DNA from: a virus
Lineage: Duplodnaviria > Heunggongvirae > Uroviricota > Caudoviricetes
Reading direction: 5' to 3' (one strand)
DNA: 21,531 nucleotides
Virus record (IMG/VR): IMGVR_UViG_2698536335_000017
Shown here: positions 1,419 to 21,531 of the stretch, piece after piece
Position numbering within the stretch: the stretch's first letter is position 1
How the letters are laid out: each line of letters opens with the position of its first letter
Program-made: the position numbers and the translations under genes
The notes under the pieces: generated by a model
Databases searched by the model: none
What the model was told of the DNA's origin: nothing
Seen by the model: the letters and a program-made list of their open reading frames with translations, nothing else

Positions 1419-2489
1419 TTATTTGATTTCAATTTTGTCCCACTCCCTGCCTCTGTCATCACGATACTGTGATGCCATGGTGTCCGACTTATGCCCGAGA
1501 AGATGTTGAGCAAACTTATCGCTTATCTGCTTCTCATAGAGTCTTGCAGACAAACTGCGCAACTCGTGAAAGGTCGGCGGATCCCCTTCGAAGGAAAGAC
1601 CTGATGCTTTTCGTGCGCGCATAAAATACCTTGATACTGTGCCGGATGAAAGCGGTTCACGATGAGTAGATGCAATTATGGTTTCTCCGCCAAGAATCTC
1701 TTTGCATTTATCAAGTGTTTCCTTCATTGATATCCCGAGAGCATCAACATGCAATGTTGTAGGGATGGCAATTTTTACGCCTGTTTTGCTTTGCTCGACA
1801 TAAAGATATCCATCTACGATATCAGACCACTTCATTTCGCATAAATCACCAACTCGCTGCCCGGTAACAACAGCCAGCTCCATTGCAAGTCTTAGCCAAC
1901 ATGGTGATGATTCTGCTGCTTGATAAATTTTCAGGTATTCGTCAGCCGTAAGTCTTGATCTCCTTACCTCTGATTTTGCTGCGCGAGTGGCAGCGACCGG
2001 GTTTGTTGTTATATGGCCTTCAGCTATTGCCTCTCGGAATGCATCGCTCAGTGTTGATCTGATTAACTTGGCTGACGCCGCCTTGCCCTCGTCTATGTAT
2101 CCACTGAGCATTGCCGCAATTTCTTTTGTGGTGATGTCTTCAAGTGGAGCATCAGGCAGCCCCCTCCTTATTGCTTTAATTTTGCTCATGTAATTTATGA
2201 GAGTCTTCTGCTTGATTCCTCTGCTGGCGAGGATTTTTTCGTAGCGATCAAGCCATGAATGTAACGTAACAGAATTATCACTGTTGATTCTCGCTGTCAG
2301 AGGCTTGTGTTTGTGTCCTGAAAATAACTCAATGTTGGCCTGTATTGCTTCAGTGATTGCTATCCTCCTGTCTCGGCCTAATCCAAACTCTTTACCCGTC
2401 CTTGGGTCCCTGTAGCAGTAATATCCATTGTTTCTTATATAAAGATTAGGGGGTAAATCCCGGCGCTCATGACTTCGCCTTCTTCCCAT
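1419..2489 (-). CDS. int: Tyrosine integrase, lambda Int (356 aa)
   Basis: ORF translation matches lambda Int as recalled (MGRRRSHERRDLPPNLYIRNNGYYCYRDPRTGKEF ... HELRSLSARLYEKQISDKFAQHLLGH ... Y near C-terminus). Adjacent to att core, overlaps xis as in lambda. Confidence 0.95.
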   Translation of the reverse strand: MGRRRSHERRDLPPNLYIRNNGYYCYRDPRTGKEFGLGRDRRIAITEAIQANIELFSGHKHKPLTARINSDNSVTLHSWLDRYEKILASRGIKQKTLINYMSKIKAIRRGLPDAPLEDITTKEIAAMLSGYIDEGKAASAKLIRSTLSDAFREAIAEGHITTNPVAATRAAKSEVRRSRLTADEYLKIYQAAESSPCWLRLAMELAVVTGQRVGDLCEMKWSDIVDGYLYVEQSKTGVKIAIPTTLHVDALGISMKETLDKCKEILGGETIIASTHREPLSSGTVSRYFMRARKASGLSFEGDPPTFHELRSLSARLYEKQISDKFAQHLLGHKSDTMASQYRDDRGREWDKIEIK

Positions 2490-2685
2490 TTCTGATCCTC
2501 TTCAAAAGGCTACCTGTTACTGGTCGATTTAAGTCAACCTTTACCGCTGATTCGTGGAACAGATACTCTCTTCCATCCTTAACCGGAGGAGGGAATATCC
2601 TGCATTCGCGCACCCATCGACGAACTGTTTCAAGGCTTCTTGGGCGTCGCTGGCGTGCATTCCACTCCTGAAGTGTCAAGTACAT
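2467..2685 (-). CDS. xis: Excisionase, lambda Xis (72 aa)
   Basis: Translation MYLTLQEWNARQRRPRSLETVRRWVRECRIFPPPVKDGREYLFHESAVKVDL matches lambda Xis; 3' overlap with int. Confidence 0.95.
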   Translation of the reverse strand: MYLTLQEWNARQRRPRSLETVRRWVRECRIFPPPVKDGREYLFHESAVKVDLNRPVTGSLLKRIRNGKKAKS

Positions 2686-2791
2686 CGCAAAGTCTCCGCA
2701 ATTACACGCAAGAAAAGCCGCATTGATGCGGCGATGGTAGGTCTGGATATCATTGAGCCATGAACAGGCCTCATCGAGTGTGAGGCTGTGG

Positions 2792-3136
2792 TTAGTCCTT
2801 TCGTAACTCGCTGATTCTCCTGTAAGTCTCTGGTGCTTTGTTTCCGTGTATCTTCATTTCAGACTTCAACAGAGCAACGAGGGAATCCCATTCGTTGAGG
2901 ATGCCTTTGAATGCCGGAACGCGCTTTGCAACCTTGTCGAATGAATCTCTGATTTCTGGAATCTTCTCAACAAGTGCAACGCATCGTCGGAAGTCTGCTG
3001 CGTCATGGGGAGCGCCGAAGTGATGACCATAGATATTCTTTTTCAGGCCACATGCGATTGAGGCAAGAGTTGCGCTACTGATGCCAACATCGCCAGTCGA
3101 TTGCCATTTCAAAACCTTCATAGACAAATCTGACAT
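2792..3136 (-). CDS. Hypothetical phage protein (114 aa), early-left accessory region
   Basis: Complete ORF with upstream SD-like GGAGACAAGAA. No family recognised. Confidence 0.5.
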   Translation of the reverse strand: MSDLSMKVLKWQSTGDVGISSATLASIACGLKKNIYGHHFGAPHDAADFRRCVALVEKIPEIRDSFDKVAKRVPAFKGILNEWDSLVALLKSEMKIHGNKAPETYRRISELRKD

Positions 3137-17231: not shown

Positions 17232-17416
17232 ACGCCACAATTCAAACGATACCAGAGCTTCTTATCCAGACACGAGGCAATCAGACCGAAGTGGCGAGGA
17301 TGCTTTCCTGCGCAAGAGGAACAGTGCTCAAGTACAACCGAGACAGCAAAGGCGAGCGTCATGTAATAGTTAACGGCGTCCTGATGGTCAAACAGGGCAA
17401 GAGGGGAAGACGATGA
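17228..17416 (+). CDS. Small nin-region protein (62 aa), last gene before the moron
   Basis: ATGA overlap with rusA; no family recognised. Confidence 0.45.
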   Translation: MNATIQTIPELLIQTRGNQTEVARMLSCARGTVLKYNRDSKGERHVIVNGVLMVKQGKRGRR

Positions 17417-17544
17417 GACTCGAAAGCGTAGCTAAATTTCATTCGCCAAAAAGCCCGATGATGAGCGACTCACTACTGGCCACAGTTTATTGGTTTTCGT
17501 AACTGAGTCATTTTATTATTTTATTGCAACTTTTAATCTTTTAT

Positions 17545-17596
17545 AGTGCGAAATAAATGGAGCTGGCATTCATTTCGCACTTTATGTTTTTGTTGG
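17545..17596 (+). terminator. Terminator-like hairpin with long loop plus T-rich tail
   Basis: Perfect 10-bp inverted repeat AGTGCGAAAT ... ATTTCGCACT (17-nt loop) followed by TTATGTTTTTGTTGG. Confidence 0.35.
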
Positions 17597-17627
17597 ACTT
17601 ATGTTATTTTGATTGAATTCAATTCAG

Positions 17628-18587
17628 TTAAAAAAAGAAGGTGATTGCTCCATTTATAAATGAATAGTCATCCCCTGTCTTGAATTCTGATGTTACTTTA
17701 TTAAATGCTAGTGTGAAGGCTACAGGTGCATACCCAATTGTTGCGCCAACTTGATATTCATCAACAGTTTTGTTTAGCGATACTGTTGTTTGTTTCGTCT
17801 GTATTGTTTTTCCTTCGAGAGTATAGTTGCGATTGACATCTCGTCTTTCCATACCTGCAAAAATCTTGTATTTGAATCCGCTTGTATCGGACATATGCAT
17901 TAAACCACGGGGAGCCAGCAGACCAAAGCCATTATCCGAATTGAAGGTTTTATCATTACCAATGGCAATGGTTGCGCCATATGCTACATATTGAAATAAG
18001 TTTCCAGTAACAGCAGAAACTTCAGGGTATAATCCAACATTAGCACCTAAAATATCCATACTTGGTGTCATGGATAGCATCCCTTTTACAGTATAACCGT
18101 AGCGATTCTCTATTTGATCATCCCATGCATGATATTTTTCTGCCCCAATAATCTCATGAGCTTTATTTTGTACTTTCTGACCGCCTGCGTCGGGGCCAAC
18201 AACACCTATGTCAGTACCTAATCGATAGCGAATCCAGTCATTCGCAAGGGAGTTCCATTCAATACCAGTGTGAGTGTATGCACTAAAAGCTCTGTCTCCA
18301 GTTACAGCTGTGTTGTGTCTTTTATTACTGCCTGATGGAGAGTAAATATCTTGCGCAATATGGAGAGATAATTGGCTCGAGTCTGAGATATCGTGGCTAT
18401 ATCCCAGAAATAAGCCTTGTGAGTAATCATCTCTGTTTTCATGTTTATTGCCATAAATATCATTAAGTATTGGTTGAAACTTCCCTGCATCATCATTTGC
18501 TAATGATAATGCAAGGCTGTTCGCGATAGCTGAACACGTGGTAAATGACAGAGCAATAAAGACGCCAGCGATGACACTTTTTTTCAT
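17628..18587 (-). CDS. lpxR: Outer-membrane beta-barrel protein, probably LpxR-family lipid A 3'-O-deacylase (319 aa), prophage moron
   Basis: Signal peptide, C-terminal aromatic residues, alternating beta-strand pattern. Length equals Salmonella LpxR as recalled, and the predicted mature N-terminus NSLALSLAND puts Asn9-Asp10 where LpxR has catalytic N9/D10. Opposite strand, AT-rich flanks. Confidence 0.5.
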   Translation of the reverse strand: MKKSVIAGVFIALSFTTCSAIANSLALSLANDDAGKFQPILNDIYGNKHENRDDYSQGLFLGYSHDISDSSQLSLHIAQDIYSPSGSNKRHNTAVTGDRAFSAYTHTGIEWNSLANDWIRYRLGTDIGVVGPDAGGQKVQNKAHEIIGAEKYHAWDDQIENRYGYTVKGMLSMTPSMDILGANVGLYPEVSAVTGNLFQYVAYGATIAIGNDKTFNSDNGFGLLAPRGLMHMSDTSGFKYKIFAGMERRDVNRNYTLEGKTIQTKQTTVSLNKTVDEYQVGATIGYAPVAFTLAFNKVTSEFKTGDDYSFINGAITFFF

Positions 18588-18978
18588 ATGTTATTGTCTT
18601 CCTTTTTTTTGAATGGTGCGCGTATTTTACATACATGAGTTTGTAATACAAGGTGCGTAATCAATATGATGTTTTATAATTGCGTGAGACAATTGATTTA
18701 TTCGTTTTTTATTGTGGTTTTTATTATCTTTTAATGTAACGGTGTTTTTATTAAGTGTGTTTGCGTGGTGTTTTATGTTTTTTATAATTTTTATTTTATT
18801 AAATTTAAAAGTATTAGTAATGGCTATTCTATATAGCAATATAAGAACTGTTACAAAAAAAGGGGGGGCAATTACAGGTAGTTATGGATGATGAGTGAAA
18901 CAGATATTGGAGAACCGGGGAATGAATGATGTCTGAGTCTTATATATCAGAACTCCTTCGCTGTCGCTGGGGGCTCCT

Positions 18979-19752
18979 GTGCTTATGTCGTTTCCCCGAT
19001 TCGGTTTTGAACGATTACCGAATGTTGAAGAATTATGCCAAAATATAGAAAGGATTTACTGCATGAATACCCAATATTTACAGTATGTTCGTGAGCAACT
19101 TATGGCAGCTACTGCTGACTTGAACGGAGCAACGAAAGGCCAGCTCGAAGCCTGGCAGGAGCATGCACAATTTGATACTGGTACATACAAACGAAAGAAG
19201 CCGCGCATTCTGGATGTGGTAACTGGCAAGATGATTACGCTGGATAATACGCCGACTTCCGGTAAGCAGTCGTACGCAAAAGGTTCATCCATTGCTTTGG
19301 TCAGCCCGGTTGAATTCTCAACCTCTTCATGGCGCCGCGCGGTTTTGTCTCTCGATGAACATCAGAAAGCATGGTTGCTTTGGTGTTACAGCGAAAGCGT
19401 TCGATGGGGGCATCAGGTCACCATAACGCAATGGGCATGGAGCGAGTTTAAAGATTTGTTAAGTAACAGAAAAATTGCAGGTAAGACACTGGATCGCCTG
19501 AAGACGTTAATCTGGCTGGCTGCACAGGATGTGAAGAGCGAACTTGCAGGGCGTGAGGCCTATGAATACCAGACACTGGCATCATTGGTGGGAGTGACAA
19601 CAAAAAACTGGTCCGAGACATTTACTGAACGCTGGGTTGCAATGAAGCACATTTTTCTACAGCTTGATAGTGATGCTTTATTGCTTGTGACGAGAACACG
19701 TTCAAAACAAAAGGCAGCATTTTTACAGCAAAATATTGCAAAACTGGATTAA
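18979..19752 (+). CDS. Q: Late-gene antiterminator Q, large phage-82-like type (257 aa)
   Basis: Last gene of the early-right operon, immediately followed by a consensus-like promoter and a short terminated transcript (pR'/tR' arrangement). Start ambiguous (GTG 18979, ATG 18985 or ATG 19063). Family call is mainly by position and length. Confidence 0.6.
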   Translation: MLMSFPRFGFERLPNVEELCQNIERIYCMNTQYLQYVREQLMAATADLNGATKGQLEAWQEHAQFDTGTYKRKKPRILDVVTGKMITLDNTPTSGKQSYAKGSSIALVSPVEFSTSSWRRAVLSLDEHQKAWLLWCYSESVRWGHQVTITQWAWSEFKDLLSNRKIAGKTLDRLKTLIWLAAQDVKSELAGREAYEYQTLASLVGVTTKNWSETFTERWVAMKHIFLQLDSDALLLVTRTRSKQKAAFLQQNIAKLD

Positions 19753-19764
19753 AAGCCATATACT
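19736..19764 (+). promoter_or_regulatory. Late promoter pR' (-35 TTGCAA, 17-bp spacer, -10 TATACT)
   Basis: Near-consensus sigma70 hexamers with ideal spacing; the -35 overlaps the last Q codons as in lambdoid phages. Confidence 0.7.
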
Positions 19765-19797
19765 TCATGCAAATTTGGTATGTTGTAAAAAATGTAT

Positions 19798-19824
19798 AAA
19801 CCCGCTGCCGAGTGGGTTTTTTTT
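19798..19824 (+). terminator. tR' intrinsic terminator, closing a roughly 55-nt pR' leader transcript
   Basis: Hairpin ACCCGC-TGCCGA-GTGGGT followed by eight T residues, about 30 nt downstream of the predicted start. Confidence 0.7.
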
Positions 19825-19921
19825 ATGCCCTGAGTTGTACTTGTACGGTAAACATGCTGGCTGCTATGTAATAGAGTTTTTTTAGCCTGTAACCTCTTGA
19901 CGGCATTGAATTGCTTTTGTT

Positions 19922-20680
19922 ATGAGTTGTAAGCCAATGTTATCATCTTGTATTGGGGTGGTTATGAAGGATGGTGCGCTGCTCAGGAGTTCTTCACTTT
20001 TTATTGCCTACATGGGATGCCTTGGATGGGGGAGTGCTTATTTCTATGGATGGGGTACTTCTTTTTACTACGGCTTCCCATGGTGGATTGTAGGTGCAGG
20101 TGTTGATGATGTTGCCAGAAGTTTATTTTTTGCAGTTATCGTCATTGCTATATTTCTTATCGGTTGGGGTATTGGTGTTGTATTCTTTTTCGCAGTGAAA
20201 AGAAAACATTCTATGCAAGAGCTAAATGTATTTCGCCTTTATTTTGCTGTGGAATTATTGTTTGTGCCGGCAATTATTGAGTTTTCTATATTGAGACAGA
20301 AGATTCAGGTACCTCTTTTGCTACTGTCAGCAGCGATTGCGCTGGCGGTTACAATTTCGATAAGATCTTATGGGCGATTTTTATCGGTATCATGCTTCTA
20401 TGATAAGCCATTTATAAAAAAACATTTTTTTGAGATTGTGATGATTGCTTTTGTGGCATATTTCTGGCTTTTTTCATTTCTGACAGGATATTACAAACCA
20501 CAGTTTAAGAAAGAATATGAAATGATTAATTATAATGATGGTTGGTATTATGTTCTTGCTCGTTATGATAATTGTCTGGTTTTGTCTACTTCTTTCAATG
20601 CAGGTAGTAAAAGGTTTGTCATTTATCAATCAGCACAAGATAAGAATCTTCAGGTTGATATTGTAAGGACCAGAATTTAA
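19922..20680 (+). CDS. Multi-pass inner-membrane protein of unknown function (252 aa), moron at the stx-equivalent locus
   Basis: Four to five hydrophobic helices rich in aromatic residues and a soluble C-terminal tail of about 60 aa; low GC. Alternative starts at 19937 and 19964 (GGTGG 4 nt upstream). Confidence 0.55.
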   Translation: MSCKPMLSSCIGVVMKDGALLRSSSLFIAYMGCLGWGSAYFYGWGTSFYYGFPWWIVGAGVDDVARSLFFAVIVIAIFLIGWGIGVVFFFAVKRKHSMQELNVFRLYFAVELLFVPAIIEFSILRQKIQVPLLLLSAAIALAVTISIRSYGRFLSVSCFYDKPFIKKHFFEIVMIAFVAYFWLFSFLTGYYKPQFKKEYEMINYNDGWYYVLARYDNCLVLSTSFNAGSKRFVIYQSAQDKNLQVDIVRTRI

Positions 20681-20813
20681 TTGGCTGCATAAATAATATT
20701 TTAAGTTGCAAGTTGGCTATTCGTAGGAATAGAACCTTAGGCATGCTGAATGCGTTTTCTGAACATTGTTTTATAAACTGTGTCTGCTTGCTGTTGTGAT
20801 CCTGTTTTTAGTG

Positions 20814-20924
20814 ATGGTGATGATGGATTTCACCAGCAGGATAATGTTGGTACTGACTGATGGCGCTCTGGTCTGCGGCATTGTGGTATTGCTGTGGCCG
20901 ATGATGAAAGAACAGAATGAATAA
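20814..20924 (+). CDS. Possible small hydrophobic peptide (36 aa), hand-translated
   Basis: Translation MVMMDFTSRIMLVLTDGALVCGIVVLLWPMMKEQNE; no clear SD, so this may not be translated. Confidence 0.2.
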   Translation: MVMMDFTSRIMLVLTDGALVCGIVVLLWPMMKEQNE

Positions 20925-21109
20925 TTCTTGACTTTTTTGTTTACTGTTTATTAAAAAATCAACCGCATGGTGAATCCTCCTTGGAGGGGCTAAATGATCG
21001 AGTTTTAAGGGCACGTAGCGAGTTCTGTTTGATCATTGCAGAACTTAGCGGGAGGCGCCATGCGTACATCACTAGTGTTATTCCTTTTATCATTTTCCTT
21101 GTGAGTTCT

Positions 21110-21136
21110 GGCTGCGCATTGCGCAGCCTTTTTTTT
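21110..21136 (+). terminator. Strong intrinsic terminator upstream of the nanS-p-like gene
   Basis: Perfect 8-bp GC-rich stem GGCTGCGC / GCGCAGCC with 3-nt loop, followed by eight T residues. Confidence 0.75.
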
Positions 21137-21222
21137 ATGACCTGCCACTGGCAGATGGTCATCCTGTGATTTGATTCCGCTTCCGGCTTTTTAACTCTGT
21201 TCCTCTACACGGGAGAAATTCG

Positions 21223-21531
21223 ATGTCGATTAAACATTACGATGTTGTCAGGGCGGCGTCGCCGTCAGACCTTGCGGAAAAGCTGACACACAAACTGAAA
21301 GAGGGCTGGCAGCCATACGGCGGACCGGTTGCCATTACGCCGTACACACTGATGCAGGCGGTGGCTATTGAAGGAGAGCCACAGGTCGGCCCTTCATCTG
21401 AGCCGGATTGGTACTACGTCATCGTACTGGCCGGGCAGTCCAATGCCATGGCTTACGGTGAAGGGCTTCCGCTGCCGGATTCATACGATGCTCCGGATCC
21501 GCGCATTAAACAGCTGGCGCGCCGCAGTACA
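21223..21531 (+). CDS. 5' part of a nanS-p-like gene (DUF1737 N-terminal domain then SGNH/sialate O-acetylesterase-like domain), truncated by the window edge
   Basis: SD GGGAGA 6 nt upstream of ATG. N-terminus MSIKHYDVVRAASPSDLAEKLTHKLKEGWQPYGGPVAITPYTLMQAVAIEG is DUF1737-like, followed by VIVLAGQSNAMAYGEG (SGNH block I GQSN). Open to the window end. Confidence 0.6.
   Translation, partial: MSIKHYDVVRAASPSDLAEKLTHKLKEGWQPYGGPVAITPYTLMQAVAIEGEPQVGPSSEPDWYYVIVLAGQSNAMAYGEGLPLPDSYDAPDPRIKQLARRST

Follow-up and report, generated by a model that had tools for sequence, protein, structure and literature searches.

Shiga toxin (Stx)-converting phages, such as BP-4795 and those of the 933W type, carry stxAB in the interval between the late antiterminator gene Q, with its promoter pR′ and terminator tR′, and the esterase gene nanS-p. 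Here, we analyzed a lambdoid prophage in which this interval holds a different gene. The stretch under study—virus record IMGVR_UViG_2698536335_000017, 21,531 nucleotides, referred to as a whole as the window—sits at the ybhC (lambda att) site, and the gene in question encodes a member of the TfpB/STM1630 family (PF27470), most likely of 238 amino acids (aa; 19964–20680, + strand). The two kinds of cargo differ in that their proteins are unrelated and in that the window carries putative membrane proteins with a promoter motif and a terminator of their own; by analogy with stxAB, the gene is expected to be exposed to Q-antiterminated late transcription. An earlier note on this DNA, made from the letters alone, had described the gene as a Q-controlled moron encoding a 252-aa membrane protein that was undescribed and could not be placed in a family. 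As set out below, the position and the moron character were borne out, whereas the family could be named and the protein had already been catalogued.

The closest described relative is CPT_434_68 of phage 434 (UMO75332.1, annotated as a putative membrane protein; E. coli WP_001302581.1), which is 100% identical to the window protein over 238 aa, with 99.9% DNA identity over 1025 bp. Its neighbors (lpxR, ylcG, a Q82-like Q, a terminator, DUF3927/TciB, a small open reading frame [ORF], and a SASA esterase) are the same, the sole difference being the annotated start, which gives 247 aa instead of the 238 aa backed by homologs. In the phage 434 record, the gene sits in the region that distinguishes 434 from 434B.

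STM1630 of Salmonella Typhimurium (SL1344_1560), the namesake of the NCBI ‘STM1630 family protein’, has 238 aa, shows 46% identity over its full length, and shares the same motifs. It likewise lies in low-GC, horizontally acquired DNA, beside the virulence genes sseJ and steB; unlike the window gene, it is chromosomal, outside a prophage late region, and without Q. STM1630 has been deleted and profiled (PMC4219756, PMC4534456, PMC2639726, bioRxiv 10.1101/689075): a promoter of its own has been mapped, it is co-regulated with Salmonella pathogenicity island 2 (SPI-2; PMC2639726; bioRxiv 10.1101/689075), and deleting it gave phenotypes that are weak or unconfirmed (PMC4219756, PMC4534456).

TfpB of Moraxella bovis and M. 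lacunata, the namesake of PF27470, is a 261-aa protein with about 29% identity to the window protein (profile E 4e-67) that shares the AYxYGW, YYG[FY]PW, ARSL, and C-terminal YY[IV]L motifs. It differs in lying within a pilin-gene inversion region, beside a Piv-like recombinase. We know of no function assigned to it since its description around 1990. A similar plan is seen in the TfpY/FimB-like proteins of Pseudomonas, Dichelobacter, Neisseria, and Acinetobacter—about 240 aa, transmembrane helices, a periplasmic beta domain—which are non-enzymatic inner-membrane assembly helpers encoded, like Moraxella tfpB, beside the pilin gene (PMC11841053). However, they have three transmembrane helices as against the five predicted here from a structural model and the charge distribution. 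No pilin gene was found in the window, pilin adjacency being limited to the Moraxella members, and no TfpY/FimB protein was among the best 120 of 135 profile matches, a direct sequence comparison with TfpY/FimB not having been made. We thus treat these proteins as the nearest functional analogy rather than as family members.

A TfpB/STM1630-family gene in the Q-to-nanS-p interval

All 104 single-sequence matches and all 135 profile matches to the window protein carry Pfam PF27470, named TfpB in the genomic-context annotation, as does the cluster that is 100% identical to it (P0001); the assignment is a precomputed database label, the Pfam release used for our own hmmscan being one without that model. 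In recent RefSeq records, the label on this same DNA is ‘STM1630 family protein’. We also built a profile from near and distant relatives together with the window protein, and it retrieved the Moraxella ‘protein tfpB’ (P0157, E 4.2e-67), a Salmonella protein (P0075, E 7e-86), and proteins of Neisseria and Mannheimia. Since its gene sits between sseJ and steB (gene order as in PMC4219756), P0075 is STM1630. Scans of the window protein against Pfam (without PF27470), NCBIfam, and PADLOC gave nothing significant and those against PHROGs only families of unknown function; the 59 full-length family members had no consistent weak Pfam or NCBIfam match either, and no match to a known housekeeping membrane protein was found. 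A literature search returned nothing on WP_001302581, PF27470, or DUF3927/TciB. The gene is already catalogued (Pfam PF27470, the NCBI STM1630 family, phage 434), and what is added here is a corrected start codon, the family assignment, a likely promoter of its own, a predicted topology, and a map of contexts across genera.

An exhaustive search of 1.8 billion cluster representatives yielded only 55 matches, arguing that the family is small and confined to animal-associated Gamma- and Betaproteobacteria. Scanning species-representative genomes, we found members in Haemophilus ducreyi, Glaesserella, Actinobacillus, Aggregatibacter (two to three copies), Pasteurella, Rodentibacter, Conchiformibius, four Moraxella species, and Salmonella arizonae/diarizonae. 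Within E. coli the gene is common: about 680 of 5426 complete genomes have a near-identical copy, the 1025-bp region occurs in 692 (656 at ≥99% identity), and at lower stringency some family member is present in 1197 of them, with O157:H7 genomes usually having two. A protein 100% identical to that of the window is also encoded on a 3-kb contig binned as ‘MAG: Veillonella sp.’ (metagenome-assembled genome); this contig is, almost certainly, a piece of E. coli prophage placed in the wrong bin.

The position of the gene was confirmed by comparison with toxin phages. Pfam matches, promoter and terminator scans, and the phage 434 record agree on the order Q, pR′, tR′, cargo, nanS-p proposed in the earlier note. 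When searched against phage records, the final 300 bases of the window matched 276 of them, most from Stx1- or Stx2-converting phages, with the similarity starting at the nanS-p start codon; Stx1 phage BP-4795, for its part, has Q followed by stxA1, stxB1, a small ORF, yjhS/nanS-p, DUF1378, and holin. Hence, the gene fills the interval in which Stx phages hold stxAB. GC content across the ORF is 0.30–0.42, compared with about 0.50 in the ninB–ninH genes on the left. Three of 50,697 phage records carry the gene, and none of the Stx-converting phages in that collection has a family member, which argues that it is an alternative to stx in this slot and not a companion.

Coding sequence and selection

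An uninterrupted + strand ORF spans 19922–20680 and encodes 252 aa when counted from its first ATG. Most full-length homologs, however, have 236–238 aa (a few gene calls reach 269 aa) and align with the 252-aa ORF from its Met15 onward; the phage 2B8 annotation gives exactly the 238-aa form, whereas the Prokaryotic Genome Annotation Pipeline and the phage 434 record start at an intermediate ATG (247 aa). A G-rich, Shine-Dalgarno-like run (19955–19961) precedes the ATG at 19964, and a purine-rich run stands before the equivalent ATG in all 12 diverged relatives aligned. ATG 19922, in turn, falls within the –10 element of a conserved promoter-like motif. Because the homologs align from Met15 and because of this overlap, the true coding sequence (CDS) is most likely 19964–20680, with 238 codons plus stop. 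The 252-aa start was rejected on these grounds (homolog lengths and alignment, the 2B8 annotation, overlap with the –10 element). The earlier note was therefore right about the ORF but not about its length, nor about an interval opening at 19736, since 19736–19921 is non-coding and made up of pR′, tR′, and promoter DNA.

Comparison with phage 2B8 (12 nucleotide and 5 amino-acid differences) gave a ratio of nonsynonymous to synonymous substitution rates (dN/dS) of 0.196. Ratios of 0.14–0.22 were obtained against homologs from enterotoxigenic E. coli (ETEC), Shigella, Salmonella, and Yersinia, which are approximate as dS is saturated. Given these values and the spread of homologs over four bacterial families, the ORF is a real gene under purifying selection and not a chance ORF. 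The E. coli copies are annotated as ordinary CDSs, and copies in close relatives are intact, decay being limited to some other lineages such as Nissle 1917.

Predicted architecture and conserved motifs

Fifty-nine full-length family members (about 230–260 aa) align end to end, and an AlphaFold2 model was built from this alignment (predicted local distance difference test [pLDDT] 80.1; predicted template modeling score [pTM] 0.73). The model, which suits all members alike, has helices at residues 4–36, 47–78, 89–111, 116–136, and 149–181, followed by a five-strand beta domain at 184–235. For a positive-inside analysis, net charge (K+R minus D+E) was averaged over the 59 homologs, giving +0.8 for the N-terminus and –0.4, +2.7, +0.3, and +2.0 for loops 1 to 4, respectively. 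These charges fit an N-in orientation; the protein is accordingly predicted to span the inner membrane five times, with about 55 residues of beta domain in the periplasm. Together with the low GC content, model and charges bear out the polytopic membrane protein of the earlier note.

Six residues are invariant among the 59 members (A25, Y26, W30, W40, A51, F218) and a further set is nearly so (S10, S11, G29, G31, G37, P39, W41, R52, S53, L54, R91, G175, Y195, Y196). By type, the positions that are invariant or nearly so are occupied by A, Y, W, G, P, F, S, V, L, and two Arg. Conservation is strongest in the uncharged, 30%-aromatic helix 1 and the next, presumably periplasmic, loop (SS..AY.G..GW..AY.YGWG...YYGFPWW.V..G.D..ARSL), and extends to a membrane-proximal GY.(K/R)P and a YY(V/I)L strand; these motifs are shared by members as distant as those of E. 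coli and Moraxella. The family alignment holds no conserved His, Asp, Glu, Cys, or Lys, which argues against an enzyme. No fold match to the AlphaFold2 model was found, and a profile search of PDB sequences gave no match at E up to 1.

A candidate promoter and a proposed dual mode of expression

Just upstream of the gene lies a candidate promoter on the + strand, with a –35 box TTGACG (19897–19902), an 18-nt spacer ending in TG, and a –10 box TATGAG (19921–19926). The motif—TTGAC(G/T), N18 with TG, TATG(A/T)(G/A)—is conserved in four contexts, namely the window, Escherichia sp. MOD1-EC7003, the P393-F10 prophage, and an ETEC heat-labile toxin (LT) plasmid, and its distance from the start codon is the same in all of them. 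It is kept despite diverged coding sequences and although P393-F10 has a different Q and the ETEC plasmid none. These features suggest that the gene is expressed in lysogens from its own promoter as well as by Q read-through.

In lambdoid phages, a promoter directly after Q and ahead of a terminator is the standard late-region layout, and Q-modified polymerase from pR′ transcribes downstream past tR′. The terminator scan revealed none between tR′ and the gene, so that Q-modified polymerase would transcribe it. The control by Q that the earlier note had proposed is therefore probably only half of the picture: read-through from pR′ fits, while the conserved sigma-70-like motif, present also on a plasmid lacking Q, speaks against exclusive dependence on Q. 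In a lysogen, we would expect transcription from the sigma-70-type promoter just past tR′, either constitutive or regulated; after induction, a strong rise in expression would come from Q-modified RNA polymerase running through tR′. The whole unit of promoter, genes, and terminator has the classical layout of a moron.

Genomic contexts of the family

The Q genes directly before family members are themselves of at least three types by Pfam: Q82-like (PF06323) in the window, PF06530-type in Yersinia, and a DUF1133 Q with a weak PF06530 match in P0019-type prophages. The Q proteins of phage 2B8 and of the P393-F10 prophage differ in length (192 and 221 aa, respectively). Other members reside on plasmids and islands. 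ETEC LT plasmids carry a 59%-identical homolog 867 bp from eltA, divergently oriented and flanked by insertion sequence (IS) elements; 106 Shigella virulence plasmids, including pWR100, have a member in IS-rich DNA; and besides the Salmonella copy between sseJ and steB, another is found at the end of a pap/sfa fimbrial island. Such scattered presence on prophages, plasmids, and islands fits a moron, in line with the earlier note. The copy next to eltAB keeps the promoter-like motif of the prophage copy, and this hints that the LT locus may derive from, or have recombined with, a lambdoid late region.

Outside the enterobacteria, the Pasteurellaceae and Neisseriaceae members are single genes amid unrelated housekeeping genes, and the Moraxella gene lies amid pilin genes in the pilin inversion region, adjoining a 322-aa Piv-like recombinase. 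The 67 neighbors at non-enterobacterial loci match 96 Pfam families, none of which recurred more than three times, arguing that there is no obligatory partner. The tfpB ORF of M. equi and M. lacunata spans only 195–197 aa and lacks the C-terminal beta domain, whereas that of M. bovis is full length. A published 19-bp duplication that frameshifts M. lacunata tfpB was not confirmed in NCTC10359, where we found no such repeat and an ORF of 195 aa.

One neighbor does recur among enterobacteria. lpxR, encoding a lipid A 3′-O-deacylase, adjoins the family gene in three arrangements: as in the window, divergently in Citrobacter rodentium, and convergently in P0019-type prophages; a case with pmrD next to lpxR was seen once. 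It is not beside the family gene in 2B8, on the ETEC plasmids, in Shigella or Salmonella, or at any non-enteric locus examined, and we keep the link as a lead and not as a conclusion. In one E. coli prophage, a family member, lpxR, and a pmrD homolog following lpxR together fill the slot for stx in a late region of the Stx2 type (DUF1378, DUF826, holin). The group of lpxR, pmrD, and the family gene could be a lipid A-remodeling moron cluster.

Strain Nissle 1917 has a frameshifted remnant between IS elements, beside a tRNA-Arg gene and the iroBC salmochelin genes. The same partial match (query 71–623) recurs in several further strains, among them isolates from dogs and humans.

A putative envelope factor and alternative explanations

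Taken as a whole, we read the gene as encoding a TfpB/STM1630-family membrane protein with dual expression that acts as a stand-alone, non-enzymatic envelope factor, and we consider this reading to have an even chance of being correct. The gene heads a three-ORF cargo block (tfpB-like gene, DUF3927, small ORF, terminator) between Q/pR′/tR′ and nanS-p. Family identity, conservation, position in the genome, and the predicted architecture are shown here; the promoter, the dual expression, the topology, and the binding role at the envelope are inferred. In the proposed mechanism, the invariant, aromatic and glycine-rich stretch of helix 1 and the periplasmic loop (AYxYGWG...YYGFPWW...ARSL) would act jointly with the beta domain to bind a component of the envelope—possibly a lipid-linked molecule or a subunit of a surface structure, pilin-like or other—and thereby alter surface properties to the benefit of the host bacterium during animal (mucosal) colonization. 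A stand-alone, host-directed role is suggested because homologs persist intact without phage genes (near eltAB, on Shigella plasmids, between sseJ and steB, at pap/sfa, and in Moraxella, Pasteurellaceae, and Neisseriaceae). An envelope link is supported by the lpxR adjacency in three arrangements, once with pmrD.

Data on STM1630 bear on this reading as well. STM1630 belongs to a set of 123 genes co-regulated with SPI-2 (PMC2639726) and was singled out from intra-macrophage RNA-seq (bioRxiv 10.1101/689075); its expression during macrophage infection is lower in the ST313 strain D23580 than in 4/74 (bioRxiv 10.1101/689075, 10.1101/450098). The gene has a mapped transcription start and is silent in ST313 owing to two single-nucleotide polymorphisms in the –10 box (bioRxiv 10.1101/689075). 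In a screen, the deletion mutant was hypermotile (swimming 1.72, swarming 1.62; PMC4219756).

Several points weigh against the envelope-factor reading. Hypermotility was not among the phenotypes confirmed by clean deletions (PMC4534456), and the STM1630 deletion showed no defect in intramacrophage replication (bioRxiv 10.1101/689075). No family member has an experimentally assigned function, and no fold match backs a binding role. The topology is drawn from the positive-inside rule and the AlphaFold2 model, and the gene's own promoter is a motif in the sequence. Lastly, since no gene partner is conserved outside the enterobacteria (the 96 Pfam families among 67 neighbors mentioned above), adjacency to lpxR or pilin genes may simply reflect co-location in mobile low-GC DNA.

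A bolder version of the idea, which we regard as rather unlikely, is that the TfpB/STM1630 family represents an unrecognized, horizontally traded envelope factor of mucosal Gram-negative pathogens, or else a new single-gene phage-exclusion system. As an envelope factor, it might tune pili, flagella, or lipid A/lipopolysaccharide, perhaps with LpxR, during colonization; one and the same small membrane protein is carried in phage late regions, on virulence plasmids of ETEC and Shigella, within the SPI-2 regulon of Salmonella, and in the Moraxella pilin switch. Finding a function would explain a gene present in about one fifth of complete E. coli genomes and in nearly all lineages of enterohemorrhagic E. 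coli sampled; the same gene is found in phage 434, on virulence plasmids of Shigella and ETEC, and within the SPI-2 regulon of Salmonella. It would also show what lambdoid phages put into the toxin slot when toxin-free. At present, this is a widespread, tractable, and catalogued protein at a famous locus, of modest interest and unsurprising to the specialist.

Superinfection exclusion would account for some of the same features. A membrane protein made in the lysogen might block DNA entry or abort infection by other phages, and a predicted membrane protein encoded by a prophage moron with its own promoter motif would suit such a task, as would the sporadic distribution and the paralogs (two places in most O157 genomes, two to three copies in A. 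actinomycetemcomitans). The Moraxella copy, moreover, lies at a type IV pilus locus, and pili are phage receptors (PMC11841053). Yet neither the protein nor the two downstream ORFs had a PADLOC match at E up to 1, many members lie between housekeeping genes instead of in defense islands, the gene is present in just three of the 50,697 phage records, and the Salmonella member is co-regulated with SPI-2 virulence genes and not with prophage genes (PMC2639726). On balance, we consider an anti-phage function unlikely.

The analogy with TfpY/FimB raises the prospect of a type IV pilus accessory protein that aids pilin assembly, for instance of E. coli PpdD/HCP or of ETEC and enteropathogenic E. coli pili. 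The founding Moraxella member does lie amid pilin genes beside a Piv-like recombinase, and the host taxa are all known as type IV pilus-bearing mucosal bacteria. TfpY-like proteins are similar in size (235–245 aa) and combine N-terminal transmembrane helices with a periplasmic beta domain, but those helices number three and not five, and the beta domain is described differently (PMC11841053). With no TfpY/FimB protein of Pseudomonas, Dichelobacter, or Acinetobacter baumannii among the best 120 of the 135 profile matches, and no member outside Moraxella adjoining a pilin gene at the loci examined, we find this explanation improbable.

The remaining explanations match the distribution and selection data poorly. 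That the protein serves the production or release of AB5 toxins, being kept beside toxin genes to help Stx or LT export, is suggested by its place in the stx slot and by the 59%-identical homolog 867 bp from eltA. However, no Stx-converting phage in the collection carries a member, so that the gene replaces stx and does not accompany it; most members have no toxin neighbor, and LT is known to be exported by the type II secretion system. A toxin-accessory role is very improbable. We place a component or regulator of the lysis cassette, antiholin-like or setting lysis timing and made only late under Q, at the same very low level: the gene for this predicted membrane protein is the first past pR′/tR′ and lies upstream of holin, endolysin, and spanin, but a terminator and the 1.9-kb esterase gene stand between it and the holin, a promoter motif of its own precedes it, and it has intact homologs without phage genes nearby (on plasmids, islands, and Pasteurellaceae chromosomes). 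Least probable of all is a decaying, non-functional remnant hitch-hiking with mobile DNA, for despite truncated or frameshifted copies (Nissle 1917, several 150–190-aa clusters, fragment PHROGs, and the 195–197-aa ORFs of M. lacunata and M. equi), dN/dS is 0.14–0.22 over deep divergence, about 680 E. coli genomes hold a full-length, near-identical copy that is annotated as an ordinary CDS, motifs are conserved from E. coli to Moraxella, the AlphaFold2 model is confident, and STM1630 is transcribed (bioRxiv 10.1101/689075).

Organization of the late region

All features that follow lie on the + strand unless stated otherwise. The left joint of the low-GC lpxR-to-nanS-p module is a truncated N-terminal fragment of a lambda-type Q gene (17413–17484; RefSeq ‘antitermination protein, incomplete’), which is also noted in the phage 434 record. 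The neighboring moron lpxR follows on the – strand (17628–18587; Pfam LpxR E 6.8e-40, also annotated LpxR), with its product being an outer-membrane enzyme, and then a ylcG-like small gene before Q (18929–19048; RefSeq and phage 434 annotation). Q itself is Q82-like (19063–19752; Pfam Phage_antiter_Q E 1.7e-91, annotated Q), and its end overlaps the candidate late promoter pR′ from the promoter scan (TTGCAA, 17 nt, TATACT; 19736–19764). The tR′ intrinsic terminator (19798–19826) consists of AAACCCGCTGCCGAGTGGGTTT with a 9-bp stem and then a T-run, this hairpin also being annotated as a terminator in the curated record of phage 434.

The second gene of the cargo block, at 20766–20924, encodes a 52-aa small membrane protein of the DUF3927/‘TciB-like’ type (Pfam DUF3927 E 2e-14; PHROG 1470). 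It is followed by a putative 62-aa ORF (20981–21169) from the ORF list that is annotated as a ‘putative membrane protein’ in phage 434 and has no family match in Pfam, PHROG, PADLOC, or NCBIfam scans. Inside this ORF, a strong intrinsic terminator (21110–21137; 8-bp stem with seven GC pairs, T-run), found in the 434 record too, closes the cargo block. The 5′ part of a nanS-p-type (DUF1737/SASA) esterase gene then runs off the window (21223–21531; DUF1737 E 1.5e-16; SASA esterase in 434). Genes for holin, endolysin, and spanin lie downstream of the esterase gene in the source strain and in phage 434.

Beside lpxR in the low-GC insertion, 18550–18900 is a very AT-rich spacer (GC 0.27–0.33). The stretch 17413–18900 looks like a recombination joint at which the whole lpxR-to-nanS-p module replaced the original Q region, and phage 434 shares this joint (Q fragment, lpxR insertion, ylcG, complete Q82-like Q). 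The esterase gene (21223–23087) is annotated as frameshifted in strain 2003-3014, whose region is 100% identical, and is intact in phage 434. In another prophage, DUF3927 is paired with a TerB-family gene directly before the holin.

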